Below, in pieces: positions 8,877 through 21,421 of a DNA stretch of 21,471 bases. Each line of letters opens with the position of its first letter. Position 1 is the stretch's first letter. The translations under genes were made by a program, and so were the position numbers. Source of the stretch: a virus; UHGV virus genome UHGV-0123286; one strand, 5' to 3'. The notes under the pieces were generated by a model. The model saw only the letters and a program-made list of their open reading frames with translations. It was not told where the DNA came from and made no database searches.

Positions 8877-9593
8877 ATGGAAAATAAAAAATCACTGACG
8901 ACAGAACAGCTCGAAGACGCTAAGCGGCTTAAGGCTTTGTATGAGTCAAAAAAGAAAGAATTGGGAATAACCCAATACTCAATCGCTGATGAACTGGGTA
9001 TCACCCAAGGAGCGGTAGGGCATTATCTTAATGGCAGAAACGCGCTAAACGTTGAGGTTGCATCTGGTTTTGCACGATTGTTGCAAGTCTCAATTGCTGA
9101 TTTTAGCCAGTCAATTGCTGCCAAGGTTGCAGAACAGGCAGAAAGCCTTAAGAGCGATGCCAACGTAAGGTATGCAGGGGAATACAGAGCAGGAAAGAGG
9201 TATCCGGTGTTAAGCAGTATCCAGGCTGGCTCGTGGTGTGAAGCATGCGAACCATACACCATTAAAGACATAGATGTTTGGCTTGAGTCTGACGCGCATA
9301 TTCAAGGTAATGCGTTCTGGCTTAAAGTGGAAGGTGATTCAATGACGGCACCGGTTGGGTTAAGCATTCCAGAGGGAACATTCGTTCTTTTCGATACCGG
9401 AAGGGAGGCGATCAACGGCAGCTTGGTCATAGCAAAACTTTCTGACTCTAACGAAGCAACATTCAAGAAGCTGATAATCGACGGCGGAAATAAATACCTC
9501 AAGGGACTTAACCCTGCATGGCCTCTCGTGCCAATCAATGGAAACTGCAAGATTATAGGCGTTGCAATTGAGACAAAACTAAGGCTGGTTTGA
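8877..9593 (+). CDS. cI: CI repressor (HTH N-domain plus S24 LexA-like autocleavage domain), 238 aa
   Basis: Overall alignment to lambda CI (LTQEQLEDARRLKAIYE.., C-terminal FWLEVEGNSMTAP.., FKKLI motifs) with divergent recognition helix. Confidence 0.9.
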   Translation: MENKKSLTTEQLEDAKRLKALYESKKKELGITQYSIADELGITQGAVGHYLNGRNALNVEVASGFARLLQVSIADFSQSIAAKVAEQAESLKSDANVRYAGEYRAGKRYPVLSSIQAGSWCEACEPYTIKDIDVWLESDAHIQGNAFWLKVEGDSMTAPVGLSIPEGTFVLFDTGREAINGSLVIAKLSDSNEATFKKLIIDGGNKYLKGLNPAWPLVPINGNCKIIGVAIETKLRLV

Positions 9594-9610
9594 TCACGCA
9601 AGGGGCGCTT

Positions 9611-9979
9611 ATGGTTGGAACCGCTATAGCAAGCTTTTTTGGGATGTTGGCAATCTCGACAATTTACGGCTTAGCGCATGCTTTTATTGCGAAATCTCTA
9701 TCAGAAAAAATAAGCCAGGCTTGGGCGCATAGATTGGCTCGTTTCATGGTTCTAGTGATCATAGCAATACAAGGGATATCTGCATTTATCCTCTATGGAT
9801 CAAGCTTATACCTATTGTATCAAGGCGCGACATTTACGCCTTACACCAGTGATTACGGAACTCTATACGATGGTAGTGAAGACATCTCAATGGCTTGGAT
9901 CGTCTTTGGTTTATCTATGGCCGTGTCTGTTGTAGCAGACATCATTAAGGTAATTCTCGTCTTAACCTTCGCTGACTAA
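9611..9979 (+). CDS. Small integral membrane protein (3 predicted TM helices), 122 aa, immediately downstream of cI
   Basis: Three hydrophobic stretches (VGTAIASFFGMLAISTIYGLAHAFI; LARFMVLVIIAIQGISAFILYG; MAWIVFGLSMAVSVVADIIKVILVL); same strand as cI, 17 nt after its stop. Confidence 0.5.
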   Translation: MVGTAIASFFGMLAISTIYGLAHAFIAKSLSEKISQAWAHRLARFMVLVIIAIQGISAFILYGSSLYLLYQGATFTPYTSDYGTLYDGSEDISMAWIVFGLSMAVSVVADIIKVILVLTFAD

Positions 9980-10111
9980 CTCATAATCCCGGCAGCAATA
10001 GCTATCGGGATCCACTTCACATATCCCGCATAAAAAGCACTGAACAAGCAGACACCGAAAAAATAAATATCCTTTGTATTCATTTGCTTATCATTATTTC
10101 ACCAAAAATAA

Positions 10112-10152
10112 ATACCTTGGGTATTTACACAATAAAATACCTACAGTATTCT
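10112..10152 (+). promoter_or_regulatory. OL operators (10112..10124 ATACCTTGGGTAT; 10137..10149 ATACCTACAGTAT) with pL (-35 TTTACA 10124..10129, -10 TATTCT 10147..10152)
   Basis: Same 13-bp palindrome family and 25-bp spacing as OR; hexamers 17 bp apart, oriented toward N. Confidence 0.55.
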
Positions 10153-10198
10153 TTAGCCATCAGCAGGACGCTGGAAGCCAAACGGAACAGATTGGCAG

Positions 10199-10239
10199 GC
10201 TCTTTAACATTGATGGGATTGTCCCGCCGAAATGCGGGA
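10199..10239 (+). promoter_or_regulatory. nutL: boxA GCTCTTTAACA (10199..10209) and boxB hairpin TCCCGCCGAAATGCGGGA (10222..10239)
   Basis: boxA consensus followed 12 nt later by an inverted repeat identical to nutR boxB, between pL and N. Confidence 0.65.
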
Positions 10240-10346
10240 ACCAAAGAGTAGTTGGCTTTGGGGTGACGTGAAGTGCAGCTGCACGACGGCAACCGGAAGA
10301 TAAGCACCCGGCGCGTCACCGCCAAAGTCAATCATCGGAGGTCAAC

Positions 10347-10652
10347 ATGACAGTAGTCATTACATACCTGGCTGACGATAACGCCAGAAACCGCCGCAGA
10401 GCACGCAGACAGGCTCAACGTGAACAGGCAATGCAAGAGCAGCGACTGGCGCGAAAAATTGCGCTAAAGCTCTCTGGTTGCGTCAGAGCAGACAAAGCAG
10501 CATCACTCGGAAGCCTTCGCTGCAAGAAGGTAGAAGAAGTCGAGAGTAAACAGAATCGTATTTACTACCGCAAGCCACGCAGTGAAATGGGTGTGACTTG
10601 TGTTGGTCGCCAGAAAATGAAATTAGGCAGCAAACCACTGTATGAGGGGTGA
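10347..10652 (+). CDS. N: N antiterminator, 101 aa
   Basis: Arginine-rich motif NARNRRRARRQAQ near N-terminus; C-terminus RIYYRKPRSEMGVTCVGRQKMK resembles lambda N C-terminus; GGAGG RBS. Confidence 0.85.
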   Translation: MTVVITYLADDNARNRRRARRQAQREQAMQEQRLARKIALKLSGCVRADKAASLGSLRCKKVEEVESKQNRIYYRKPRSEMGVTCVGRQKMKLGSKPLYEG

Positions 10653-10655
10653 TCT

Positions 10656-10907
10656 ATGGAATTTCATGAAAGTGCGATTTATGATTTTCGCGCTAACGCA
10701 AATTCAGTAAAACCACAGCCAATTGCAGTACTTTTTAAAACAATGGGTGCGTGGGCTGTTTTATGCTTCGCCGCTGATGACACTGACGCAAGAATGGCAA
10801 TAGGCCAAGAGATGGAGATGGACCCGACAAACGATGAATTCATAATTTATGGCGCTCCATCTAATTACTTACTTGATACCTGCAACATTTACAACAAGGC
10901 TGCCTGA
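10656..10907 (+). CDS. Hypothetical protein, 83 aa (position of lambda ral)
   Basis: ORF with GAGGGG RBS directly after N; no family recognised. Confidence 0.45.
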   Translation: MEFHESAIYDFRANANSVKPQPIAVLFKTMGAWAVLCFAADDTDARMAIGQEMEMDPTNDEFIIYGAPSNYLLDTCNIYNKAA

Positions 10908-10934
10908 TGGTGGCCTTTATTTTTAAGGTGCTAT

Positions 10935-11177
10935 ATGAAAATTAAAACCATGGGCGCAAGCCCATTAAGCGGTCGTATTTTTCAAGGAACATTAAACACT
11001 GAAAAAGGAATGTGGGTAGGAAAGAAAGAAGATGTCACCGAACAGGCAGTTAAGGCAGTAGCTGAACACCTGATGATAAAAAACCAGAAATACGCATACG
11101 AAACGAAGGATGGCAAATGGCTGATAATAAGCCATCAAGTGGTTGATAAATTACCAGAAGATTTTATTGCTGATTAA
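10935..11177 (+). CDS. Hypothetical protein, 80 aa
   Basis: ORF with AAGGTG RBS; no family recognised. Confidence 0.45.
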   Translation: MKIKTMGASPLSGRIFQGTLNTEKGMWVGKKEDVTEQAVKAVAEHLMIKNQKYAYETKDGKWLIISHQVVDKLPEDFIAD

Positions 11178-11305
11178 ATTCACTTTGGAACAAACAACAG
11201 AATAAACACTGCACTGTGTATTCATTCCAACGAGTGAATACACGGAGCAATGTCGCTCGTAACTAAACAGGAGCCGACTTGTTCTGATTATTGGAAATCT
11301 TCTTT

Positions 11306-11332
11306 GCCCTCCAGTGTGAGGGCGATTTTTTT
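11306..11332 (+). terminator. Intrinsic terminator inside the pL operon (tL-like)
   Basis: GCCCTC-CAGTGT-GAGGGC hairpin followed by GATTTTTTT. Confidence 0.5.
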
Positions 11333-11343
11333 GACGGAGGAAA

Positions 11344-11656
11344 TATGAAATTACGTGTCTGGCATATCCCGCAAGTACCTATGAAACCGTTCATTGTAGA
11401 AGTGGCAAGTGTTGAAGAGGGTGTTCGCCTGATGGATGCACTGGCTGATTATGACGCCTTTCAGTATGACAACAACATCAAGCCTGACTACTGCAATGCT
11501 AACGGCCTTGAGATGTGGGATGAGAGCCTTACCGATGAAGATTTATCAGAGATGGGGCTTACTGATCGCTGGGTGGATTGGTACAGCGAATGCCAATGTT
11601 ACGACGACCCACGTAAATATCTCGAAAGCCTGAAAGAAGAAACATCAGCCGCCTAA
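11344..11656 (+). CDS. Hypothetical acidic protein, 103 aa (start at internal ATG with GGAGGA RBS)
   Basis: ATG 11344 preceded by GACGGAGGAAAT; translation MKLRVWHIPQVPMKPFIVEV...; no family recognised. Confidence 0.5.
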
Positions 11657-11731
11657 GCGCGGCTTTACCGCATACCAATAACGCTTCACTCGAGGCGTTT
11701 TCGTTATGCAATCAAATATAAGGAGTTACCC

Positions 11732-11866
11732 ATGATGCACTTTCAGCTCGCGGGTAGCGGCGTCATGTCCGCTTTCTACCCGCACGAATCTGAATTATCA
11801 CGCCGAGTTAAACAATTAATCAGAGCAGCAAAGAAACAACTGGAGGCGTTATGCGCAATGAAATAG
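11732..11866 (+). CDS. cIII: CIII-like protein (FtsH inhibitor), 44 aa
   Basis: Manual translation MMHFQLAGSGVMSAFYPHESELSRRVKQLIRAAKKQLEALCAMK; resembles lambda CIII central region; AGGAG RBS; below ORF-track threshold. Confidence 0.55.
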   Translation: MMHFQLAGSGVMSAFYPHESELSRRVKQLIRAAKKQLEALCAMK

Positions 11867-12003
11867 CCATTAATCACCAGATGCTTCGTGCTGCACAAAA
11901 CAAAGCAGTAATAGCCAGATTTATTGGTGATTCCAAAATGTGGCTTGAAGCAAATAAAGCGATGAAATCAGCTATCAACCTTCCGTGGTATCGCAGGAAA
12001 TGA
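11851..12003 (+). CDS. kil: Kil-like protein, 50 aa
   Basis: Manual translation MRNEIAINHQMLRAAQNKAVIARFIGDSKMWLEANKAMK...; IARFIGDSKMW resembles remembered lambda Kil IATFIGDEKMF; GGAGG RBS; overlaps cIII stop. Confidence 0.45.
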   Translation: MRNEIAINHQMLRAAQNKAVIARFIGDSKMWLEANKAMKSAINLPWYRRK

Positions 12004-12170
12004 GTTTTACAGATAACTGGTCAGACGAAGAATTCATTCGTCAGATGAAAGATTTAATCGGTAACGAAGGAGATATTCATGTCACTTGCAACCACAGTGA
12101 AGGAGAGCAAGTTACAGAGACGCATGTACACGCAGCAGGCGTTAATGTATCGCCAGAAGGGAGATCGTGA
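12000..12170 (+). CDS. Small ORF, 56 aa, translationally coupled to kil (ATGA); overlaps an alternative-frame ORF
   Basis: Start overlaps kil stop; no homolog recognised. Confidence 0.3.
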   Translation: MSFTDNWSDEEFIRQMKDLIGNEGDIHVTCNHSEGEQVTETHVHAAGVNVSPEGRS

Positions 12171-12249
12171 AGGTGTTCGCGTATTTTTAAATGCGGCAAA
12201 GACTGAAGTATTAAATCAGCGTTATTTCCTTGGGCCGTGTCCATTCTGA
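12079..12249 (+). CDS. Small ORF, 56 aa, with strong RBS (AAGGAG, 7-nt spacer); overlaps previous ORF in another frame
   Basis: MSLATTVKESKLQRRMYTQQALMYRQKGDREGVRVFLNAAK...; at most one of the two overlapping ORFs is likely real. Confidence 0.3.
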   Translation: MSLATTVKESKLQRRMYTQQALMYRQKGDREGVRVFLNAAKTEVLNQRYFLGPCPF

Positions 12250-12259
12250 GAACAATCAT

Positions 12260-12865
12260 ATGAGCAAAGAATTTTACGCAAGACTGGCAGCTATTCAGGA
12301 GAATCTGAACGCGCCAAAGAATCAGTACAACTCATTCGGCAAATATAAATACAGAAGCTGCGAAGATATTCTTGAAGGCGTTAAGCCGTTACTGAATGGT
12401 CTGTTTTTATCAATCAGCGATGAAGTTGTGTTGATTGGTGATCGGTATTACGTGAAAGCAACGGCAACTATTACCGATGGCGAAAACAGTCATACGGCAA
12501 CCGCACTAGCACGAGAGGAAGAAAGCAAGAAAGGAATGGATTCTGCACAAGTTACGGGAGCTACAAGCTCTTATGCACGCAAGTATTGCCTCAATGGTTT
12601 GTTCGGCATTGATGATGCGAAAGATGCAGATACAGACGAGCATAAACATCAGCAGAACGCAGCAGCAAAGCAATCAAAACCATCACCTACACCTGAACAG
12701 GTTCTAAAAGCATTCACTGACGCAGCATTGCAGAAAAACACCGTGGAAGAGCTTAAACAGGCGTTCGCCAAAGCGTGGAAGATGCTCGAAGGCACACCGG
12801 AGCAGCACAAAGCGCAGGACGTTTACAACATCAGACGAGACGAATTAGAAGGAGCTGCTGCTTAA
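12260..12865 (+). CDS. erf: Erf single-strand annealing recombinase (P22 Erf family), 201 aa
   Basis: From MSKEFYARLAAIQENLNAPKNQYNSFGKYKYRSCEDILEGVKPLL... matches remembered P22 Erf. Confidence 0.85.
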   Translation: MSKEFYARLAAIQENLNAPKNQYNSFGKYKYRSCEDILEGVKPLLNGLFLSISDEVVLIGDRYYVKATATITDGENSHTATALAREEESKKGMDSAQVTGATSSYARKYCLNGLFGIDDAKDADTDEHKHQQNAAAKQSKPSPTPEQVLKAFTDAALQKNTVEELKQAFAKAWKMLEGTPEQHKAQDVYNIRRDELEGAAA

Positions 12866-13248
12866 TGGCACATTCGATTACTGTAAGACTAAACAAGCCC
12901 GCAAGAGAGTTTCAGGCCGGGGAAAATATCGGATTCAACATCCGTGCTGGCGTTCAGTATTACGATCGCCAGACAAAAAAGAAAGAATGGACAAACTACA
13001 GCGCCGTTGTATTTGCCAAGCCGGGAGCGCAAGCGGATTACTACCGTAGTGTTCTTGTTGAAGGTGGCATTGTAGAAATTACCGGAGAAAACATCAGGGT
13101 TGATGTTTATCAGGGGCAAAATGGTCAATCAATCACTCTTGAATTACTGAATGCAAAGATTGGATTTGCAACTTCAGGAAACAGCCAACAGCAGCAAAGT
13201 AGCAATCATCAAAATCATCCTGAATACGACGATTCAATTCCCTTCTAA
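12865..13248 (+). CDS. SSB-like single-stranded DNA-binding protein, 127 aa
   Basis: C-terminal acidic tail ...EYDDSIPF (bacterial SSB ends DDDIPF); OB-fold-like core EWTNYSAVVFAK...VLVEGGIVEITG; ATG overlaps erf stop (TAATG). Confidence 0.65.
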   Translation: MAHSITVRLNKPAREFQAGENIGFNIRAGVQYYDRQTKKKEWTNYSAVVFAKPGAQADYYRSVLVEGGIVEITGENIRVDVYQGQNGQSITLELLNAKIGFATSGNSQQQQSSNHQNHPEYDDSIPF

Positions 13249-13271
13249 AGTAGCAACATAAGGATTCCATT

Positions 13272-13568
13272 ATGCCAGCGCCTCTGTATGGTGCGGACGA
13301 CGCGCGCCGCTGTTCCGGCAATTCCGTATCGGAGGTGCTGGATAAATTCAGGAAAAACTACAACCGGATAATGTCGCTACCGCAGGAAACGAAAGAGGAA
13401 AAGGAATTTCGCCATTGTATATGGCTTGCAGAGAAAGAAGAACGCGAGCGAATTTACCAGACATCAATCCGACCATTCCGCAAAGCCACATATACCCACT
13501 TCCCTGAATATATCGACCCGCGCCTGCGTAATTACCGCTCACGCTATGGCGCTATCAGTAATGACTGA
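13272..13568 (+). CDS. Hypothetical protein, 98 aa; possibly Abc2-like anti-RecBCD protein (by position after erf, unverified)
   Basis: ORF with AAGGA RBS; assignment rests on P22 gene order and an uncertain recollection of Abc2. Confidence 0.4.
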   Translation: MPAPLYGADDARRCSGNSVSEVLDKFRKNYNRIMSLPQETKEEKEFRHCIWLAEKEERERIYQTSIRPFRKATYTHFPEYIDPRLRNYRSRYGAISND

Positions 13569-13578
13569 GGAATTAACA

Positions 13579-13869
13579 ATGAAAACAATGAAGCTAAACA
13601 TCGACCTCGGAAAATACGTTATTACCGGAACCAAACACGATCTGATTCTAAGCGAAAGAGGAATTATCAAAGAAGGTGAGAATGCAGGGAAAGAAACACT
13701 AAGTCGTATCGGTTATTACAGCAAGTTTGAGCATCTGGTTAAAGAGTTATGCAACCGTGAAATCCTGTTATCTCAGGCGCAGACGCTACAGGATATTCAG
13801 CAGCATATCGAGACTTTAGGTGTGTCACTTAGCATGGCTATTGACCAGTTCGTGGAGAGTAAATCATGA
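13579..13869 (+). CDS. Hypothetical protein, 96 aa
   Basis: ATG 13579 with GAGGA RBS 7 nt upstream; [28 protein letters not shown]... Confidence 0.45.
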
Positions 13870-14030
13870 GAGGACTTGCTTACAATCCCGGCATTCTTCA
13901 GGCAGAAATGATTATTCGCCAACGCGTAAAGCCAATGCCATCGAGAGAGGAATTACTTAAGAGAAATTCTTTTCCATCAGTGAATCAAAACAAATATCTG
14001 AATGCAATGTGGCGGAGTGGGAAGAAATGA
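13866..14030 (+). CDS. Small hypothetical protein, 54 aa
   Basis: ATG overlaps upstream stop (ATGA); manual translation [36 protein letters not shown]... Confidence 0.35.
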
Positions 14031-14425
14031 AACAAATGTCACTAATTGAGATGGATGGTTTTCTGAAAGGTAAATGCATCCCACGAGATTTAAAGGTTAA
14101 CGAAACAAACGCTGAATATCTGGTGCGTAAATTTGCTGAAGCGGAGGCCAAGTGCGCGGCGCTGGCAGCGGAGAATGCGGCGCTTAAACAGTCGGAGAAG
14201 GAATTTAATAACTTCTGTCGTCAGGAGCACTACGGTTGGGAGGACAACTTCACGGAAACCCCAGCCACCGATGCTTTCCTGGCTGAAATTGAACGCAAAG
14301 CAATCCGCAAGTTCATTAACAGCATTGAACACATCCTGCGTGACAAGTTGTCACCGTATGACACCGAAGAGATGCTTGAGGCTATGCGTATTTTTCTGGA
14401 AGAACAGGGAGGTGAGCAAAAATGA
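14027..14425 (+). CDS. Hypothetical protein, 132 aa (coiled-coil-like)
   Basis: ATG overlaps upstream stop (ATGA); [55 protein letters not shown]... Confidence 0.45.
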
Positions 14426-14727
14426 CAATCACAAAACAACGGGTAGAAGAAATCATATCCCGCATTGAAATGTATGGACATGGTGCAGGGTATACCGCAG
14501 ACGAGGTTAATGACCTGGCTGTACTGGCGCTGAATTTATCAAATATCGCAAACCTGAAGCGATACGAGCTTGATATGGATGGTTGTGACTCGTGCGGTCA
14601 GGATTGTGGCGCTGACATGACTGAAGATTCTGATGGCGATTATGTCCTGTTTGATGACGTGGTTAAGTTGTTTGAGCTTGATACATTCGAAAGCCCAGCA
14701 AAGGAGGCAACCAGTGAGCGAAATTAA
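14422..14727 (+). CDS. Hypothetical acidic protein, 101 aa
   Basis: ATG overlaps upstream stop (ATGA); acidic Cys-containing C-terminal half DMDGCDSCGQDCGADMTEDSDGDYVLFDD. Confidence 0.45.
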   Translation: MTITKQRVEEIISRIEMYGHGAGYTADEVNDLAVLALNLSNIANLKRYELDMDGCDSCGQDCGADMTEDSDGDYVLFDDVVKLFELDTFESPAKEATSERN

Positions 14728-15496
14728 TTACCAGGCACTGCGTGAGGCGGCGCAACTGGCAACACAGGGTGAATGGGTCGCATTTATTTCGTCTGGTACT
14801 GGTACATATGCGGTGCATACACCTGGTGATAAACGATGTGAAGACGTTATCAAATGGACCGGCTTTGATGGACAGAAAAATGCAGAGAACAACGCTCGTT
14901 ATATCGCAGCTTTCAACCCAGAAGTAGTGCAGGCGTTGCTGGACGAGCTGGAAGGCAAAGACAAACTGATTGCCGAGCTTGGAAAACAATGCGCCGAATG
15001 GGAGCGAAAAGCATTAAGTAACTTTGAAGAGTGTGCTGCGATGGCTGAACGTATCGAAGAGATGCAGACAAAATCTGCACCAGATTCGTTTGGCATCATC
15101 GGTGAAAATATTCGAACACAGGATAATCGAATAACATCAGACCCTATGTTTTGTGTGTATCAAAAGCGCGAAATCGTTGTTGATGCTGATTATGACTATG
15201 ACCGGATTGTCTGGGTTGATGAAGATGGCAATGAAGCCAATAAACGCCAAAGTCGTCGTCTCGAACTACTTCATGAAAACTTTCGGGAGCCACCAGAAAA
15301 ATGGCGGCGCGTTGCTGTGAAAGATATTGATGAATTCGTGACCTGCTGTTTCACCGAGCAGGGTTGTAAAGACTACCTGGCAGCCAATGGTCACAATCTT
15401 CGCTTGCCATTTATATATGTAAAAAGCGGTTTCAGGAACGCTGAATATATCGGCATAAGAAACTGGCTTGCTGGCATTCGCATCAAAGGAGAATGA
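14714..15496 (+). CDS. Hypothetical protein, about 260 aa (GTG start after AAGGAGG); possibly Ead/Ea22-like early-region family
   Basis: Strong RBS AAGGAGG 6 nt before GTG 14714; family assignment from memory only. Confidence 0.45.
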   Translation: MSEINYQALREAAQLATQGEWVAFISSGTGTYAVHTPGDKRCEDVIKWTGFDGQKNAENNARYIAAFNPEVVQALLDELEGKDKLIAELGKQCAEWERKALSNFEECAAMAERIEEMQTKSAPDSFGIIGENIRTQDNRITSDPMFCVYQKREIVVDADYDYDRIVWVDEDGNEANKRQSRRLELLHENFREPPEKWRRVAVKDIDEFVTCCFTEQGCKDYLAANGHNLRLPFIYVKSGFRNAEYIGIRNWLAGIRIKGE

Positions 15497-15497
15497 G

Positions 15498-16013
15498 ATG
15501 GCGTTAACACACCGCGAACTCTGTCAGATTGCCTACAGGTTCCTTAAGCGCAACGGGTTCAAGGTTTGCTTTCATGACCGCTTTGTTGCTGTAACCAGTA
15601 CTGGAGAACAACCAGATGCTATGGGATTCAGAAATTCAGCATCATGCCTGATAGAGGCGAAGTGTTCTCGTGCTGACTTGTTGGCAGATAGAAAAAAGCG
15701 TTTCCGTAAAAATCCCTCTCTTGGCATGGGGGACTGGCGATTCTTTATTAGTGAGCCGGGAATTATTTCAATTGAGGATTTACCACCTGGCTGGGGATTA
15801 CTTCACGTTGTTAACGGAAGAGTACGGAAAGTACATGGGTGGCCAAAGGGCAATTGCTGTTGGGGTAATCCTGACGATAAGCCATTTACTGGAAATAAGC
15901 AGGTTGAATGCGATTACATGTTATCGGCATTAAGGCGCATGGAGTTGAGAGGGCACCTTAATGAAATATATGACGGTGTAATTGTTAATAAGAAAGAAGG
16001 AAACGCGGCATGA
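15498..16013 (+). CDS. Putative PD-(D/E)xK-fold nuclease-like protein, 171 aa
   Basis: Motif ...GEQPDAMGFRNSASCLIEAKCS... (PD ... ExK spacing typical of restriction-endonuclease-like fold); AAGGAGAA RBS. Confidence 0.45.
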   Translation: MALTHRELCQIAYRFLKRNGFKVCFHDRFVAVTSTGEQPDAMGFRNSASCLIEAKCSRADLLADRKKRFRKNPSLGMGDWRFFISEPGIISIEDLPPGWGLLHVVNGRVRKVHGWPKGNCCWGNPDDKPFTGNKQVECDYMLSALRRMELRGHLNEIYDGVIVNKKEGNAA

Positions 16014-16690
16014 TCACTATTACCAAAGAGCGACTACTGACAATCAAGCAGTGGCGCGAAACATACGGACCTGGTAGCAACGTTGTGCTTCCAGCAGAAG
16101 AAGCGGAAGAGCTGGCACGGATTGCACTGGCATCACTGGCAGTAGTATCGGATGAACGAGCAGCCTATGAATTATTTATGGAGAAGCGTTTCGGGGAATC
16201 TGTAGATCGCCGTAGGGCAAAAAATGGCGATAGAGAATACATGGCATGGGATATGGCGCTTGGCTGGATTATCTGGTGTCACCGCGCCGCCATGCTTCAG
16301 GGTAGCCAACCTGTAAGCCAAACTTACAAGTTGCCAGTTAATACACCTTGCCAAGATGCGCCAGCCCATATCTGGCTACAAACGGCTGGAGTATGGCCAG
16401 AAGATGGCGAGTTAAGCGAATTAACGTGGTGCAGCCACAATCAGCACCATGATGACACGCTATATGTTCGAGCTGACCTTGTGAATGGCAACTATCCGGT
16501 AACTCCGGATAGTTGGATAAGCTGTAGTGAGCGAATGCCGAACGACGCGCAGTGGTGCGTAGTGAACACAGAATACGGGTATTACGCGCAATGCTGGTCT
16601 GAAGGTCAAGGGTGGCTTGGTGATGATATCAGCATCCCTGAATGCGATGTAATCAATTGGATGCCACTACCAGAACCGCCGCAGGGGTGA
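16010..16690 (+). CDS. Hypothetical protein with DUF551-like C-terminal domain, 226 aa
   Basis: ATG overlaps upstream stop (ATGA); C-terminus WISCSERMPNDAQWCVVNTEYGYYAQCWSEGQGWLGDD...WMPLPEPP resembles DUF551 of lambdoid early regions. Confidence 0.5.
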   Translation: MITITKERLLTIKQWRETYGPGSNVVLPAEEAEELARIALASLAVVSDERAAYELFMEKRFGESVDRRRAKNGDREYMAWDMALGWIIWCHRAAMLQGSQPVSQTYKLPVNTPCQDAPAHIWLQTAGVWPEDGELSELTWCSHNQHHDDTLYVRADLVNGNYPVTPDSWISCSERMPNDAQWCVVNTEYGYYAQCWSEGQGWLGDDISIPECDVINWMPLPEPPQG

Positions 16691-16756
16691 AATGATGCTT
16701 GGCCTGAAGTATTTTATGTAATTGGTATTGCTATATTTTTATCTGGGGATAAACGA

Positions 16757-16999
16757 ATGTTCTCTCTGATTCAACGTGGTCAGATATACACCGATAGCGC
16801 TGGCTATCCAGTAAAAATCATTCGTAGTACTGATCACTCAGTATTCTTCAAGAGGATGGATGGCTATCCTGGAAGAGTGTGCATCAGAAAATTCAATAAT
16901 TTATTCGAACACATTGATCACAGAGAATATCACCAGATCCTGGCTGAAACAGAACAGGAGAACCATCTGAAAAAATTACGTGCTATGCAAAGGAGATAA
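16757..16999 (+). CDS. Hypothetical protein, 80 aa
   Basis: ORF with GGGGATAAACGA upstream; no family recognised with confidence. Confidence 0.4.
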   Translation: MFSLIQRGQIYTDSAGYPVKIIRSTDHSVFFKRMDGYPGRVCIRKFNNLFEHIDHREYHQILAETEQENHLKKLRAMQRR

Positions 17000-17079
17000 A
17001 CCGGTAAAGGTGTTCGCGATAAAGGTGAATATCGGCAATGAATAACAATCCTCGAACTCGCGGGGATTTCTTTTATCTG

Positions 17080-17105
17080 AACTCGCTACGGCGAGTTTTG
17101 TTTTA
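17080..17105 (+). terminator. Intrinsic terminator
   Basis: AACTCGC-TACG-GCGAGTT hairpin followed by TTGTTTT. Confidence 0.5.
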
Positions 17106-17117
17106 TGGAGATGATAA

Positions 17118-17285
17118 ATGCACTTCCGAGTCACAGGTGAATGGAATGGAGAGCCATTCGACAGGGTTATCGAAGCAGAGGACATCAACGACTGCTATAA
17201 CCACTGGATGATATGGGCGCAGATAGCGCATGCAGACGTAACCAATATTCGAATTGAAGAACTGAAAGAACACCAAGCCGCCTGA
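17118..17285 (+). CDS. Small hypothetical protein, 55 aa, flanked by two terminators
   Basis: ATG with GGAG 8 nt upstream; MHFRVTGEWNGEPFDRVIEAEDINDCYNHWMIWAQIAHADVTNIRIEELKEHQAA. Confidence 0.4.
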   Translation: MHFRVTGEWNGEPFDRVIEAEDINDCYNHWMIWAQIAHADVTNIRIEELKEHQAA

Positions 17286-17300
17286 TGGCGGTTTTTTCTT
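17277..17300 (+). terminator. Intrinsic terminator upstream of xis
   Basis: CCGCC-TGAT-GGCGG hairpin followed by TTTTTTCTT; stop codon of the 55-aa ORF lies in the loop. Confidence 0.55.
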
Positions 17301-17324
17301 GCGTGTAATTGCGGAGACTTTGCG

Positions 17325-17543
17325 ATGTACTTAACACTTCAGGAGTGGAACGCACGCCAGCGGCGCCCAAGAAGCCTTGAAACAGTTCGTCGATGGGTAC
17401 GCGAGTGCAGGATATTCCCTCCTCCGGTTAAGGATGGAAGAGAGTATCTGTTCCACGAATCAGCGGTAAAGGTTGACTTAAATCGACCAGTAACAGGTAG
17501 CCTTTTGAAGAGGATCAGAAATGGGAAGAAGGCGAAGTCATGA
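17325..17543 (+). CDS. xis: Excisionase Xis, 72 aa
   Basis: Translation MYLTLQEWNARQRRPRSLETVRRWVRECRIFPPPVKDGREYLFHESAVKVDLNRP... is essentially identical to lambda Xis. Confidence 0.95.
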   Translation: MYLTLQEWNARQRRPRSLETVRRWVRECRIFPPPVKDGREYLFHESAVKVDLNRPVTGSLLKRIRNGKKAKS

Positions 17544-18594
17544 GCGCCGGGATTTACCTCCTAACCTTTATATAAGAAACAATGGATATTACTGCTACAG
17601 GGACCCAAGGACGGGTAAAGAGTTTGGATTAGGCCGAGACAGGAGGATAGCAATCACTGAAGCTATACAGGCCAACATTGAGTTACTCTCAGACAGCGGA
17701 CGCAAATCACTGATAGACAGAATTAAAGGCGGTGACGCAATCACTCTTCATGTGTGGCTTGACCGATATGAAAGAATCCTCACCGAAAGGGGGATCAGGC
17801 CGAAAACTCTACTCGACTACGCCAGCAAAATCAGGGCAATCCGAAGAAAATTGCCGGACAAACCGCTCACTGACATATCAACGAAAGAAGTGGCAGCAAT
17901 GCTAAACACCTACGTAGCAGAAGGTAAAGCAGCTTCCGCAAAATTAATCAGGTCAACCCTTGTTGACGTTTTTCGTGAAGCAATAGCCGAGGGGCATGTG
18001 GCAACGAATCCGGTAACAGCAACCCGTACAGCAAAGTCAGAAGTAAGGCGCTCAAGGCTGACAGCTAATGAGTATGTCGAGATTTACCATGCAGCCGAAC
18101 CTCTCCCTATCTGGCTAAGGCTGGCGATGGATTTGGCCGTCGTTACAGGGCAGAGAGTCGGCGATTTGTGCAGAATGAAATGGTCAGACATAAACGACAA
18201 CCATCTTCACATTGAACAGAGTAAAACAGGGGCTAAACTCGCCATTCCGCTAATGCTAACGATTGACGCGCTCAATATCTCATTGGCTGATACACTACAG
18301 AAATGCAGGGATGCCAGCAGCAGTGAAACTATAATCGCATCAAAGCATCACGATCCGCTTTCCCCGAAAACAGTATCAAAGTATTTTACAAAGGCGAGAA
18401 ATGCATCTGGACTCTCATTTGATGGAAACCCGCCAACATTCCATGAACTGCGTAGCCTGTCAGCGAGGCTATACCGGAACCAGATTGGCGATAAGTTTGC
18501 TCAACGTCTTCTCGGGCATAAATCAGATTCAATGGCGGCGCGGTATAGGGACAGCCGTGGACGGGAATGGGACAAAATTGAAATCGACAAATGA
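17521..18594 (+). CDS. int: Tyrosine integrase (lambda/HK022 Int family), 357 aa
   Basis: Translation MGRRRSHERRDLPPNLYIRNNGYYCYRDPRTGKEFGLGRDRRIAITEAIQANIEL... near-identical to lambda Int N-terminus; catalytic region HELRSLSARLY...HKSD..AARY; start overlaps xis. Confidence 0.95.
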   Translation: MGRRRSHERRDLPPNLYIRNNGYYCYRDPRTGKEFGLGRDRRIAITEAIQANIELLSDSGRKSLIDRIKGGDAITLHVWLDRYERILTERGIRPKTLLDYASKIRAIRRKLPDKPLTDISTKEVAAMLNTYVAEGKAASAKLIRSTLVDVFREAIAEGHVATNPVTATRTAKSEVRRSRLTANEYVEIYHAAEPLPIWLRLAMDLAVVTGQRVGDLCRMKWSDINDNHLHIEQSKTGAKLAIPLMLTIDALNISLADTLQKCRDASSSETIIASKHHDPLSPKTVSKYFTKARNASGLSFDGNPPTFHELRSLSARLYRNQIGDKFAQRLLGHKSDSMAARYRDSRGREWDKIEIDK

Positions 18595-18688: not shown

Positions 18689-21421
18689 GTGAATTTAACC
18701 CTGACCCGAAGACTCTGGATGGGCTTTGCCCTGATGGCGCTGTTAACCCTGACCAGTACCCTGGTGGGATGGTACAACCTGCGCTTTATCAGCCAGGTGG
18801 AAAAAGACAACACTCAGGCATTGATTCCTACCATGAATATGGCGCGCCAGTTGAGCGAAGCCAGCGCCTGGGAACTTTTCGCCGCGCAGAACCTGACCAG
18901 TGCCGATAACGAAAAGATGTGGCAGGCGCAGGGGCGAATGCTCACCGCACAAAGCCTGAAGATTAATGCGTTGCTGCAAGCGTTACGGGAACAAGGTTTT
19001 GACACCACCGCTATTGAACAACAGGAGCAGGAGATCTCCCGTTCGTTACGTCAGCAAGGGGAACTGGTGGGGCAGCGTTTGCAACTTCGCCAGCAACAAC
19101 AGCAACTCAGTCAGCAGATAGTCGCCGCCGCCGATGAAATCGCACGCCTGGCGCAAGGTCAGGCGAATAATGCGGCAACCTCCGCCGGAGCGACCCAGGC
19201 CGGGATTTACGATTTGATCGAACAACATCAGCGTCAAGCCGCAGAAAGTGCACTCGATCGGCTGATTGATATCGATCTTGAGTATGTTAACCAGATGAAT
19301 GAACTGCGCCTTAGCGCCCTGCGGGTGCAGCAAATGGTGATGAATCTGGGGCTGGAACAGATCCAGAAAAATGCGCCAACGCTGGAAAAGCAGCTCAATA
19401 ATGCGGTGAAAATTCTGCAACGTCGGCAAATACGCATTGAAGATCCGGGTGTTCGTACTCAGGTAGCAACAACGTTAACTACCGTTAGCCAATATAGCGA
19501 TTTGCTGGCGCTGTATCAGCAGGACAGTGAAATCAGCAATCACCTGCAAACTCTCGCCCAAAATAACATCGCCCAATTCGCGCAGTTTAGTAGCGAAGTC
19601 AGTCAGCTGGTCGACACCATTGAGCTGCGTAATCAGCACGGGCTGGCACATCTGGAAAAAGCCAGTGCACGCGGGCAATACAGCCTGTTATTGCTGGGAT
19701 TAGTTTCTCTTTGCGCACTGATTCTGATCCTCTGGCGCGTGGTTTATCGCTCAGTCACGCGCCCTCTTGCAGAACAAACGCAGGCGCTGCAACGCTTGCT
19801 GGATGGTGATATCGACTCCCCTTTCCCGGAAACCGCTGGCGTACGGGAACTGGATACCATCGGGCGGCTGATGGATGCGTTTCGCAGCAGTGTTCATGCA
19901 CTGAATCGCCACCGCGAACAGCTGGCGGCGCAGGTCAAAGCGCGTACAGCTGAATTGCAGGAACTGGTGATAGAACACCGACAGGCACGGGCGGAAGCAG
20001 AAAAAGCCAGCCAGGCAAAATCGGCGTTTCTGGCGGCGATGAGCCATGAGATCCGCACACCGCTGTACGGTATTCTCGGCACCGCACAGCTGCTGGCAGA
20101 TAACCCCGCACTTAACGCCCAGCGCGATGATTTGCGGGCGATTACCGACTCTGGTGAATCGTTGCTGACCATCCTCAACGATATTCTCGATTATTCGGCT
20201 ATCGAAGCAGGCGGCAAGAATGTTTCGGTCAGCGATGAACCCTTTGAACCGCGCCCGCTGCTGGAAAGTACCCTGCAATTAATGAACGGAAGGGTGAAAG
20301 GTCGCCCGATTCGCCTGGCAACAGAAATTGCCGACGATGTACCGACTGCGTTAATGGGCGATCCGCGGCGTATTCGTCAGGTCATTACCAACCTGTTGAG
20401 CAACGCCCTGCGTTTCACCGACGAAGGGCACATTATTCTGCGTAGTCGCACTGATGGCGAACAATGGCTGGTCGAAGTGGAAGACAGCGGCTGCGGTATT
20501 GATCCCGCGAAACTGGCTGAAATCTTCCAGCCATTTGTTCAGGTTAGCGGCAAACGCGGCGGCACCGGGCTGGGGCTGACTATCAGTAGCCGTCTGGCCC
20601 AGGCGATGGGCGGCGAATTGAGCGCCACCAGCACGCCGGAGGTTGGAAGCTGTTTTTGTTTACGCGTGCCGTTACGTGTTGCCACTGCACCCGTGCCAAA
20701 AACAGTCAATCAGGCGGTGCGTCTGGACGGTTTACGTTTGCTGTTAATTGAAGATAACCCGCTAACCCAGCGGATTACCGTTGAGATGTTGAACAGCAGT
20801 GGGGCGCAGGTCGTTGCCGTAGGAAATGCCGCGCAGGCTTTAGAGACACTGCAAAATAGTGAACCGTTTGCTGCCGCACTGGTGGATTTTGATCTACCGG
20901 ATATCGACGGCATTACGCTTGCCCGACAACTGGCACAGCAATATCCGTCGCTGGTTTTGATTGGCTTTAGCGCCCATGTCATTGACGAAACACTGCGACA
21001 GCGTACCAGTTCGCTATTTCGCGGGATTATCCCTAAACCGGTGCCGCGTGAAGTGCTCGGTCAATTACTGGCGCACTATCTCCAACTGCAAGTCAATAAC
21101 GATCAACCACTGGATGTATCGCAACTCAATGAAGATGCTCATTTAATGGGGGCGGAGAAGATCCACGAATGGCTGATATTATTTAAACAACATGCCCTGC
21201 CGCTTCTCGATGAAATCGACATTGCCCGCGCCAGTCAGGATAACGAGAAAATAAAGCGTGCCGCACATCAGCTAAAAAGCAGTTGCTCGAGTCTGGGAAT
21301 GCGTAGCGCCAGCCAGCAATGCGCACAACTGGAGCAGCAGCCATTATCTGCCCCCCTTCCACACGAAGAAATTACACGCAGTGTTGCCGCTCTGGAAGCA
21401 TGGTTAATAAGAAAGACCTGA
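18689..21421 (+). CDS. torS: Hybrid sensor histidine kinase TorS (TMAO respiration two-component system), 910 aa
   Basis: Translation [41 protein letters not shown]... with H-box SHEIRTP, receiver domain and C-terminal HPt matches E. coli TorS; GTG start. Confidence 0.95.

Follow-up and report, generated by a model that had tools for sequence, protein, structure and literature searches.

The recombination modules of phages HK97, HK022, and HK446 belong to the "HK75 functional type," which combines an anti-RecBCD protein, an SSB, and an SAP and has no nuclease; a survey of Rec modules published in 2025 placed 27 of 325 lambdoid phages in this class and had already named HK97 gp40 SSB-1b (PMC12315714). 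In HK97 the module comprises gp42/42.1, Erf (gp41), gp40, and Abc2 (gp39), and in HK446 it comprises gp33, Erf (gp32), gp31, and Abc2 (gp30). P22 carries arf-erf-abc1-abc2 in the same PL slot and follows the same nuclease-less, RecBCD-reliant logic, and HK620 has hkaM-sak4-ssb(hkaK)-abc2, which fills the same four slots with a small protein, an annealase, an SSB with an acidic xxPPF/IPF tip, and Abc2. The exo-bet-gam genes of lambda Red occupy the same operon slot and do the same job, RecA-independent annealing recombination and neutralization of RecBCD, but lambda has its own 5'-3' exonuclease, the DNA mimic Gam that blocks RecBCD outright, and no SSB. A structure of Abc2 with RecBCD and a model for Erf loading have been published; residues 3 to 66 of P22 Abc2 form the RecC-binding helices, and Pro68 engages host PpiB (PMC9836394). 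The HK620 SSB stimulates Sak4 via its last six residues, and its tip was found experimentally to be needed for this stimulation (PMC5928155).

A recombination module of the HK97/HK022 type

We analyzed a window of 21,471 nucleotides, the viral genome UHGV-0123286, with a focus on the recombination genes at positions 12260 to 13568. The cluster found there is an ordinary and already catalogued recombination cluster of Escherichia coli HK97/HK022-like prophages, not a new one, and consists of the strand-annealing protein Erf, an SSB of very divergent sequence, and the P22-type RecBCD hijacker Abc2. The erf gene and the ORFs of 127 and 98 aa listed in the first-pass annotation were all recovered on the plus strand at the positions in Table 1. 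A 2.3-kb stretch showed 95 to 98% nucleotide identity to sequenced phages (HK446, 97.2% identity over 100% of the stretch; HK022, 97.8% over 88%; HK97, 95.1% over 88%). This identity, together with matches to Pfam ERF, Pfam Anti-RecBCD_p2, and PHROG_44, marks the three genes, as judged from their sequences, as something other than chance ORFs.

Table 1. Features of the recombination module (positions in the window)
Feature	Coordinates	Strand	Description
OrfA	12000..12170	+	56 aa (MSFTDNWSDEEFI...); homologous to gp33 of HK446 and HK75 and to the N-terminal half of HK97 gp42
OrfB	12079..12249	+	56 aa; homologous to HkaM, a small HK620 protein encoded upstream of sak4
erf	ATG 12260 to TAA 12863-12865	+	201 aa
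erf, N-terminal annealing/ring domain	12260..12664	+	residues 1-135; Pfam ERF PF04404
erf, C-terminal domain	12665..12865	+	residues 136-201 plus stop codon; three-helix bundle after Q/P/S-rich linker
ssb (HK97 gp40 family, SSB-1b)	ATG 12865 to TAA 13246-13248	+	127 aa
ssb, OB domain		+	residues 1-104
ssb, linker		+	residues 105-121; Q/N rich
ssb, tip	13228-13245	+	DDSIPF
abc2 (anti-RecBCD protein 2)	ATG 13272 to TGA 13566-13568	+	98 aa

The genes, their order, and their context are the same as in HK97, HK022, and HK446: one or more small ORFs, erf, a gp40 homolog, and abc2 follow cIII and kil at near-identity to these type phages, and int and torS lie downstream. The assignment of kil was confirmed by Pfam, and that of cIII follows the annotations of HK446 and HK97. 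Relative to HK97, the window differs in allelic detail only. It keeps the DDSIPF tip, which a 1-nt insertion removed from the HK97 reference, it has OrfA and OrfB as separate, overlapping ORFs where the HK97 reference fuses both via 2 additional nucleotides, and it carries an extra downstream DUF5405 ORF, as does HK446. None of the plus-strand ORFs of at least 90 aa scanned across the early left operon (approximately positions 9600 to 17500) matched the Exo, Bet, or Gam families, and thus the earlier proposal that lambda Red has been replaced at this locus was correct. At least a partial match to the stretch was present in 1,385 of 5,426 complete E. coli genomes, about a quarter, and SSB-1b and Abc2 followed in the same order at 79 of the 80 IMG/VR loci with a 99 to 100% identical Erf. 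Very probably, the cluster belongs to an HK022/HK97-like lambdoid prophage located beside torS and forms the recombination module of its early left (PL) operon, nuclease-less and of the P22 kind that hijacks the host.

Erf, Abc2, and the small upstream ORFs

The Erf protein matched Pfam ERF PF04404 over residues 5 to 143 (E value of 2.1e-44; 151.6 bits against a cut-off of 25) and PHROG_155 (1.6e-57), and it was 75% identical to P22 Erf over the full length, which agrees with its initial description as a P22-type Erf. The similarity to P22 is unevenly distributed. DNA homology starts exactly at the erf ATG, amino acid identity in residues 1 to 135 is about 92%, and homology is then lost from approximately position 12700 to 13270, where the Erf tail is another allele (42% identity) and abc1, encoding an HTH-like protein of 94 aa, is replaced by the unrelated SSB-1b gene; upstream of erf, OrfA and OrfB stand in place of arf. 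The PDB yielded no solved Erf structure, and by analogy with P22 Erf, the protein would form a ring oligomer that binds single-stranded DNA (ssDNA) and anneals complementary strands.

The 98-aa protein, which had been placed in the anti-RecBCD slot as a possible Abc2, proved to be Abc2 itself. It was 91% identical to P22 Abc2 and matched Pfam PF11043 (Anti-RecBCD_p2) over positions 1 to 97 of the 97-position profile (1.9e-60; 201.5 bits against a cut-off of 25) and PDB entries 8B1T/8B1U (8e-55). The gene is preceded by the Shine-Dalgarno sequence TAAGGA. Residues 1 to 66, which contain the RecC-binding helices, had only four substitutions relative to P22, and Pro68 was kept. By comparison with the P22 protein, the window Abc2 would be expected to bind RecBCD and abolish its response to Chi.

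Two small ORFs precede erf. OrfA lies between kil and erf in the slot that arf occupies in P22 and matched PHROG_2123 (8e-40); in HK446 this ORF is annotated as gp33. OrfB, read in another frame, shares 92 nt with OrfA, stops 10 nt short of erf, and matched PHROG_1723 (4.5e-34) and HkaM of HK620 (33% identity over the full length; E value of 4e-9). Of 70 distinct variants of the sequence, 69 had an intact OrfB frame, and the C-terminal tail of OrfA was not conserved. Homology to Arf was rejected for both ORFs: OrfA had in common with P22 Arf only the 7-residue motif [FW]SDEEFI (SDEEFI; E value of 0.014), OrfB did not align with it, and P22 Arf belongs to PHROG_2445, which differs from the families of both ORFs. 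A 2026 preprint reports that the P2 OLD defence is triggered by HK75 Gp33 on its own and proposes that this protein manipulates RecBCD (10.64898/2026.07.10.737580). OrfA and OrfB are probably part of the same recombination module.

The divergent SSB between erf and abc2

The 127-aa protein had been described as SSB-like, with a start overlapping the erf stop codon and an SSB-type acidic tail, and each element of this description held. The overlap is 1 nt, with the A of the ssb ATG doubling as the final base of the erf stop codon (TAATG; gcttAATGgc), and a Shine-Dalgarno sequence (AAGGAG) lies 12 nt upstream. The protein ends in ...PEYDDSIPF, an acidic, hydrophobic-tipped tail of the D-D-D-I-P-F type set behind a linker, and was 94% identical to HK97 gp40. 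It had no Pfam match, and it fell outside the curated SSB sequence models (Pfam SSB and TIGR00621), with a TIGR00621 score of 16.4 bits (E value of 0.008), far from the cut-off of 53.95 bits. It did match PHROG_44, "single strand DNA binding protein," at 1.8e-28, a family that is the product of remote-homology clustering, and hhalign aligned it with canonical SSB over 58 columns at 87% probability (E value of 4e-6). The SSB-1b profile had a single, nonsignificant match among PDB sequences, a Streptomyces SSB (E value of 0.3); a comparison of folds was needed.

The AlphaFold2 model of the protein is an OB fold with strands β1 to β3, a helix, and strands β4 and β5 in that order. The mean pLDDT was 85, with values of at least 85 in each ten-residue block of residues 1 to 100 and at least 92 in all of these blocks except 81 to 90; residues 107 to 121 and 125 to 127 were predicted to be disordered. 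In a Foldseek search with this model, the top 50 PDB matches were all SSB, mitochondrial SSB, or PriB (probability of 1.00; E values of 4e-5 to 1e-3) at moderate TM-scores of 0.4 to 0.55. The order of the OB elements, the low-complexity linker, and the D-D-x-I-P-F tip are as in E. coli Ssb (PF00436/TIGR00621) and in the canonical "SSB-1" of ES18, Sf6, and HK75, with which the segments "EW..[VY]..F.K" and "G..V.v.G" align. In contrast to these proteins, SSB-1b stays below the family thresholds, has about 15% identity to solved SSBs, and has a much shorter linker, which accounts for the total length of only 127 aa. As a putative SSB, SSB-1b may bind ssDNA and, like other members of the SSB family, assemble into a homo-oligomer (dimer or tetramer).

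In an alignment of 29 family members with identities down to 52%, 21 positions were invariant. The OB core was conserved and the linker was hypervariable, and 24 of the 29 sequences had an IPF or PPF tip. The family is very common, and the core was kept in homologs from Escherichia, Salmonella, Citrobacter, Cronobacter, Serratia, Rahnella, and metagenomes. The tip is dispensable, at least for the survival of prophages and laboratory phages, since it was lost from the HK97 reference and, through frameshifts, from a few IMG/VR copies. That the ORF is a decaying or functionless remnant between erf and abc2 can hardly be entertained: these frameshifts and the label "hypothetical protein" in most annotations would fit such a reading, but the OB core is strongly conserved across genera, the fold is predicted with confidence, the tip is maintained despite the hypervariable linker, and the gene has a good Shine-Dalgarno sequence and is translationally coupled to erf.

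Two possible relatives of the protein were rejected. P22 Abc1, a member of PHROG_323 (HTH/regulator), gave no BLASTP alignment with it at an E value of up to 100; ssb occupies the abc1 slot of P22 and, by sequence comparison, is unrelated to abc1. The HK620 SSB (HkaK), a member of PHROG_743, had no similarity to SSB-1b detectable by BLASTP or hhalign.

Possible coupling of SSB-1b, Erf, and RecBCD

By analogy with the 91% identical P22 protein, for which hijacking of RecBCD is known, the window Abc2 would bind RecC of the host RecBCD, end the normal Chi/RecA program, and turn the enzyme into an end-resection machine for the phage. SSB-1b, made in translational coupling with Erf, would coat the resulting ssDNA and display its tip, which resembles that of E. 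coli SSB. Erf rings would then anneal the ssDNA to a complementary strand, e.g., at a replication fork or on another phage genome, giving RecA-independent recombination and supporting late replication. The tip would most likely serve to recruit Erf, host SSB-client proteins, or both, as in the Sak4-SSB pair of HK620, and it is this pair that suggests a functional partnership between Erf and SSB-1b (PMC5928155). The comparison spans some differences. Abc2 is homologous in the two phages, as are OrfB and HkaM, whereas the HK620 annealase is the RecA-like Sak4, which lacks a C-terminal three-helix domain. The module differs from that of lambda in having a phage SSB, no nuclease, and an Abc2 that probably modifies RecBCD, as in P22, instead of Gam.

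The C-terminal domain of Erf offers one route by which such a partnership could work. It was predicted by AlphaFold2 as a confident three-helix bundle (pLDDT of 86), and the P22 counterpart is a different allele of it. A protein search with the 66-aa domain alone was uninformative, yielding nothing beyond fragments of the same Erf proteins, but tblastn against phage genomes revealed a portable tail of about 55 aa that is also found on RecT-like, Sak4-like, and ES18-type annealases. Copies with 47 to 52% identity end a Sak4-type ATPase and a RecT-like protein, and the P22 allele sits on the unrelated annealase cores of ES18 and HK75. We tentatively suggest, as a possibility well short of an even chance, that this tail is a portable adaptor without a Pfam family and a receptor for the D-D-x-I-P-F tip, so that SSB-1b, or the host SSB if there is no phage SSB, hands the ssDNA made by Abc2-RecBCD directly to Erf. 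On this adaptor reading, the domain may have been grafted onto at least four annealase cores (Erf, the ES18/HK75 core, RecT-like, and the Sak4-type ATPase), and the gp33-like and HkaM-like ORFs may be further modulators of RecBCD or recombination.

Two related ideas about the tail did not hold. The loss of P22 homology exactly over the C-terminal domain and the downstream gene, together with the occurrence of window-type tails with SSB-1b or canonical SSB and of P22-type tails with Abc1, hinted that the tail allele tracks the presence of SSB or Abc1. This was rejected because ES18 and HK75 have a P22-type tail followed by a canonical SSB; the RecT-like protein of phage Tyrion, which carries the tail domain and has no phage SSB or Abc2 nearby, also counts against it. 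Similarity to the C-terminal domain of Redβ, which binds the SSB tail (6M9K/7UJL), was not supported by Foldseek: searched against the PDB, the Erf tail model gave generic helical matches with E values above 1, and Redβ was absent from the top 50.

P22 Erf functions without any phage SSB, so an SSB is not essential to the chemistry. SSB-1b might instead serve phage replication in general, or act as a competitor or decoy whose tip captures host SSB clients or draws them away (ExoI, RecQ, RecO, PriA, and the χ subunit), its adjacency to erf being a matter of operon packing, a reading that we consider rather unlikely. The tip is nearly identical to the DDDIPF tip of the host SSB (PMC5928155) and should engage host clients, and Erf proteins with either tail allele are accompanied by SSB-1b, by canonical SSB, or by no phage SSB. 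Members of the SSB-1b family lie beside differing annealases: one distant homolog likewise overlaps a Sak4-type partner by 1 nt, others adjoin ERF genes, and one has no neighboring annealase. The same neighborhoods also argue the other way, as the coupling to annealase genes is tight and recurrent, with a start/stop overlap in two unrelated pairings. Moreover, all of the other module genes have recombination functions (PMC12315714), and HK620 sets a precedent for a cognate SSB that stimulates the neighboring annealase (PMC5928155).

The role of Abc2 can also be read differently, as a plain inhibitor of RecBCD that guards linear phage DNA much as lambda Gam does, with the ssDNA for Erf coming from further host nucleases (RecJ/RecQ, for example) or from replication. 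In vitro, Abc2 affects RecBCD mildly, its mode of action has been called "less well understood," and Erf loading by Abc2-RecBCD "remains to be tested experimentally" (PMC9836394); the survey simply files Abc2 under "anti-RecBCD" (PMC12315714). We regard this reading as improbable, since the module does not supply a nuclease and Abc2 sits at the site of Chi recognition and ssDNA-loop exit, not at the DNA entry site (PMC9836394). In Murphy's work, furthermore, Abc2 turned RecBCD into a Chi-blind enzyme resembling a 5'-3' exonuclease and was needed for P22 recombination (PMC5928155, PMC9836394).

Among lambdoid recombination modules, the cluster is a textbook mosaic variant, with a literature that extends from the HK97 and HK022 genome papers to the 2025 survey of Rec modules. 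By analogy with Sak4-SSB, Erf and its cognate mini-SSB could serve as a compact recombineering pair, and the tail domain common to unrelated annealases provides a concrete handle on how annealases couple to SSBs or other partners.

Identity of the Erf, SSB-1b, and Abc2 proteins

All three ORFs of the recombination module were found exactly where the first-pass annotation had placed them (see the table), and its description of a module without Red functions was correct, since no phage nuclease was found: none of the ORFs of at least 90 aa scanned on the + strand at ~9600 to 17500 matched an Exo, Bet, or Gam family. The first ORF was also correctly called a P22-type Erf annealase: it matched Pfam ERF (2.1e-44) and was 75% identical overall to P22 Erf, with an uneven distribution of identity (~92% over residues 1 to 135 and 42% over the last ~66 residues). 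The 98-aa protein, proposed earlier as a possible RecBCD modulator in the position of P22 Abc2, gave a full-length match to the Pfam family based on P22 Abc2 (1.9e-60), was 91% identical to P22 Abc2, and matched Abc2 as resolved by cryo-EM in complex with RecBCD (8B1T/8B1U, 8e-55). Only four substitutions separated it from P22 Abc2 in the RecC-binding helices (residues 1 to 66), and Pro68, which engages the host PpiB (PMC9836394), was kept. Thus, this protein is Abc2 itself, beyond merely occupying the Abc2 position.

Features of the window and of other loci
Feature	Position	Strand	Remarks
cI	8877-9593		Peptidase_S24 and HTH
N-like arginine-rich ORF			after cI
P22 gene 17 superinfection-exclusion protein homolog	11345-11656		Pfam GP17, 7e-56; upstream of cIII
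Terminator-like hairpins	11304-11325, 11680-11699		flank gene 17 homolog
cIII and kil	11851-12003		Pfam Lambda_Kil; precede the module
OrfA	12000-12170		56 aa; HK446 gp33; gp33-like
OrfB	12079-12249		56 aa; HK620 HkaM homolog, E 4e-9
erf	12260-12865	+	ATG to TAA
Erf C-terminal domain	12665-12862		residues 136-201
SSB-1b ORF	12865-13248	+	127 aa; ATG shares one base with erf stop (TAATG)
abc2	13272-13568	+	98 aa
DUF5405 ORF	13579-13869		96 aa; PHROG_154, label "replication initiation protein"; resembles Sf6 gene 24; after abc2
ea-type genes			downstream of the module
Lambda-type integrase	17521-18594
torS, host sensor kinase gene	18689-21421		GC ~55%; after integrase
Chi site	20625-20632	-	inside torS
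Erf C-terminal domain copies	L084:3138-4001, L174:1736-2677, L172:1246-1953, L175:1805-2668		related loci

The 127-aa protein carried both features noted in the first-pass annotation, namely, the SSB-like acidic DDSIPF tail (...PEYDDSIPF) and the overlap with the erf stop, with AAGGAG located 12 nt upstream of its start; erf and this ORF are translationally coupled. The remote-homology family PHROG_44, "single strand DNA binding protein," matched (1.8e-28). Curated models failed to detect the protein: Pfam gave no match and TIGR00621 scored 16 bits, under its cut-off of 54. An alignment of 29 sequences of this family, SSB-1b, showed a strongly conserved core of ~104 residues, a hypervariable Q/P/G-rich linker that lengthens some homologs to 181 to 215 aa, and a conserved tip, D-D-x-I-P-F or P-P-F. 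In a profile comparison, the SSB-1b alignment matched a canonical SSB of the phage/E. coli type (87% probability, E 4e-6), with the segments EW..V.F.K and G..V.v.G lining up. The AlphaFold2 model built from the alignment (pLDDT 85, with no ten-residue block of residues 1 to 100 below this value) had strands 1 to 3, a helix, two beta hairpins, and a disordered tail. Each of the top 50 Foldseek PDB matches to this model was PriB or an SSB from bacteria or mitochondria (probability 1.00, E 4e-5 to 1e-3), with TM-scores of only 0.4 to 0.55. Based on the profile, PHROG_44, AlphaFold2, and Foldseek evidence, the predicted OB fold, whose absence would have refuted the first-pass reading, and with it the assignment as an SSB-type protein with putative ssDNA binding, holds.

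The tip was altered in some copies. In the HK97 reference, gp40 (L002:3068-3457) has gained one nucleotide four codons ahead of its stop and ends in DDSNPILI versus DDSIPF in the window (13228-13248); thus, the type-phage copy is without the feature most suggestive of SSB function. A few IMG/VR copies end in PEKHQG, RIGGAG, or ASGLLP.

Prophage setting and distribution of the module

The module is part of the early-left (PL) operon, which occupies the + strand of the window at ~9.6 to 18.6 kb and belongs to a lambdoid prophage. The integrase is followed by the host gene torS, and the window therefore covers a prophage-host junction; torS is presumably the neighborhood of the HK022 attachment site. 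The sole Chi site (GCTGGTGG) of the window was inside torS, and the prophage DNA of the window (18.6 kb) contained none, in line with published low Chi counts in phages encoding anti-RecBCD proteins. The DUF5405 ORF was present in only about one-fifth of the related loci (among them HK446, but not HK97), indicating an optional mosaic insert.

OrfA and OrfB, which share 92 nt but are read in different frames, lie between kil and erf at the position of P22 arf, and the N-terminal SDEEFI motif of OrfA is also present in P22 Arf. Both frames were kept in 69 of 70 distinct variants of related loci; in the HK97 reference, two extra bases merge the two ORFs into gp42. The OrfA homolog HK75 Gp33 is reported to trigger P2 OLD defence on its own (10.64898/2026.07.10.737580).

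The erf-ssb-abc2 module is already known and very common. The 2.3 kb around it matched 241 phage records in total and was 97.2% identical to HK446 over its full length, 97.8% identical to HK022, and 95.1% identical to HK97; HK97 and HK446 are annotated in the order Erf, hypothetical protein (gp40 and gp31, respectively), Abc2. Among 5426 complete E. coli genomes, 1385 contained at least part of this stretch and 447 contained 80% or more of it, and the erf-ssb-abc2 order was found in 79 of 80 IMG/VR loci with a 99 to 100% identical Erf. A survey published in 2025 and covering 325 lambdoid phages named HK97 gp40 "SSB-1b," described its predicted structure as similar to that of bacterial SSBs, assigned 27 phages to the functional type "anti-RecBCD + SSB + SAP, no nuclease," and stated that experimental study of these SSBs is absent so far (PMC12315714). 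In a July 2026 preprint, the HK75 locus "Gp33, Erf, Gp31, Abc2" was cloned, with Gp31 and Gp33 called uncharacterised (10.64898/2026.07.10.737580).

Exchange of parts among related modules

DNA homology to P22 began at the exact erf ATG, faded near 12700, at the domain boundary inside erf, and returned at the abc2 start. The nonhomologous segment encodes the Erf C-terminal domain and SSB-1b in the window, whereas in P22 it encodes another allele of that domain and Abc1, which is unrelated to SSB-1b and resembles an HTH protein. The four slots are arranged in the same way in HK620 (hkaM-sak4-ssb-abc2). The HK620 SSB, which has been characterised experimentally, stimulates Sak4 via its last six residues (PMC5928155), and no similarity of this SSB to SSB-1b was detected by BLASTP or hhalign. 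Distant SSB-1b homologs directly followed a Sak4-type ATPase, overlapping it by 1 nt as SSB-1b overlaps erf in the window, and others were near ERF genes or, in one case, without an annealase. A variant module on IMG/VR contig 2675903269_000007 (L103:2305-3910) encodes a HkaM-like ORF, an Erf whose C-terminal domain is of the window type (86%), an SSB of the canonical E. coli type (153 aa, ...DFPDDIPF), and a very divergent 94-aa Abc2-like ORF, whose counterpart in the related locus L106 was 38% identical to the window Abc2. This variant shows slot-by-slot replacement with the architecture unchanged.

The Erf C-terminal domain was modeled confidently as a three-helix bundle (last ~55 residues) and had no Pfam model. 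Its resemblance to the SSB tail-binding C-terminal domain of Redβ was not supported, as Foldseek gave no significant PDB match. Nor did its allele track the partner, SSB or Abc1: the initial data agreed with such covariation, but ES18 and HK75, in which a canonical SSB comes after the P22 allele, contradicted it. Copies with 40 to 52% identity ended otherwise unrelated annealases, including the ES18/HK75 core, which is unrelated to Erf, a Sak4-type ATPase of a Leminorella prophage (52%, E 3e-15), and a RecT-like protein of phage Tyrion (47%, E 5e-13) that is paired with a RecE-like nuclease. Further phage proteins annotated as RecT or "ATP-binding" carried comparable copies, and HK620 Sak4 was without one. 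The domain is portable and looks like a shuffled partner-interaction domain.

Proposed function of the module

In published work on a near-identical protein, Abc2 contacts RecC in the region where Chi is recognized and the ssDNA loop exits and renders RecBCD Chi-blind, and the complex is proposed to make ssDNA loaded with Erf in place of RecA (PMC9836394). In analogous systems, the acidic tip of an SSB serves to recruit the annealase (PMC5928155), as is also the case for Redβ (PMC6393309). By analogy, SSB-1b would coat the resected ssDNA, its tip may recruit Erf and/or host SSB clients, and Erf rings would then anneal the coated ssDNA to a complementary strand. The main alternative, which we consider rather unlikely at about one chance in four, is that SSB-1b has a role in replication or acts as a competitor for host SSB clients and is not an Erf-specific partner. 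Overall, the observation of the first-pass annotation was confirmed and its interpretation is supported. Experimental demonstration of the putative partnership between Erf and SSB-1b and of the portable C-terminal adaptor would bring a modest upside.
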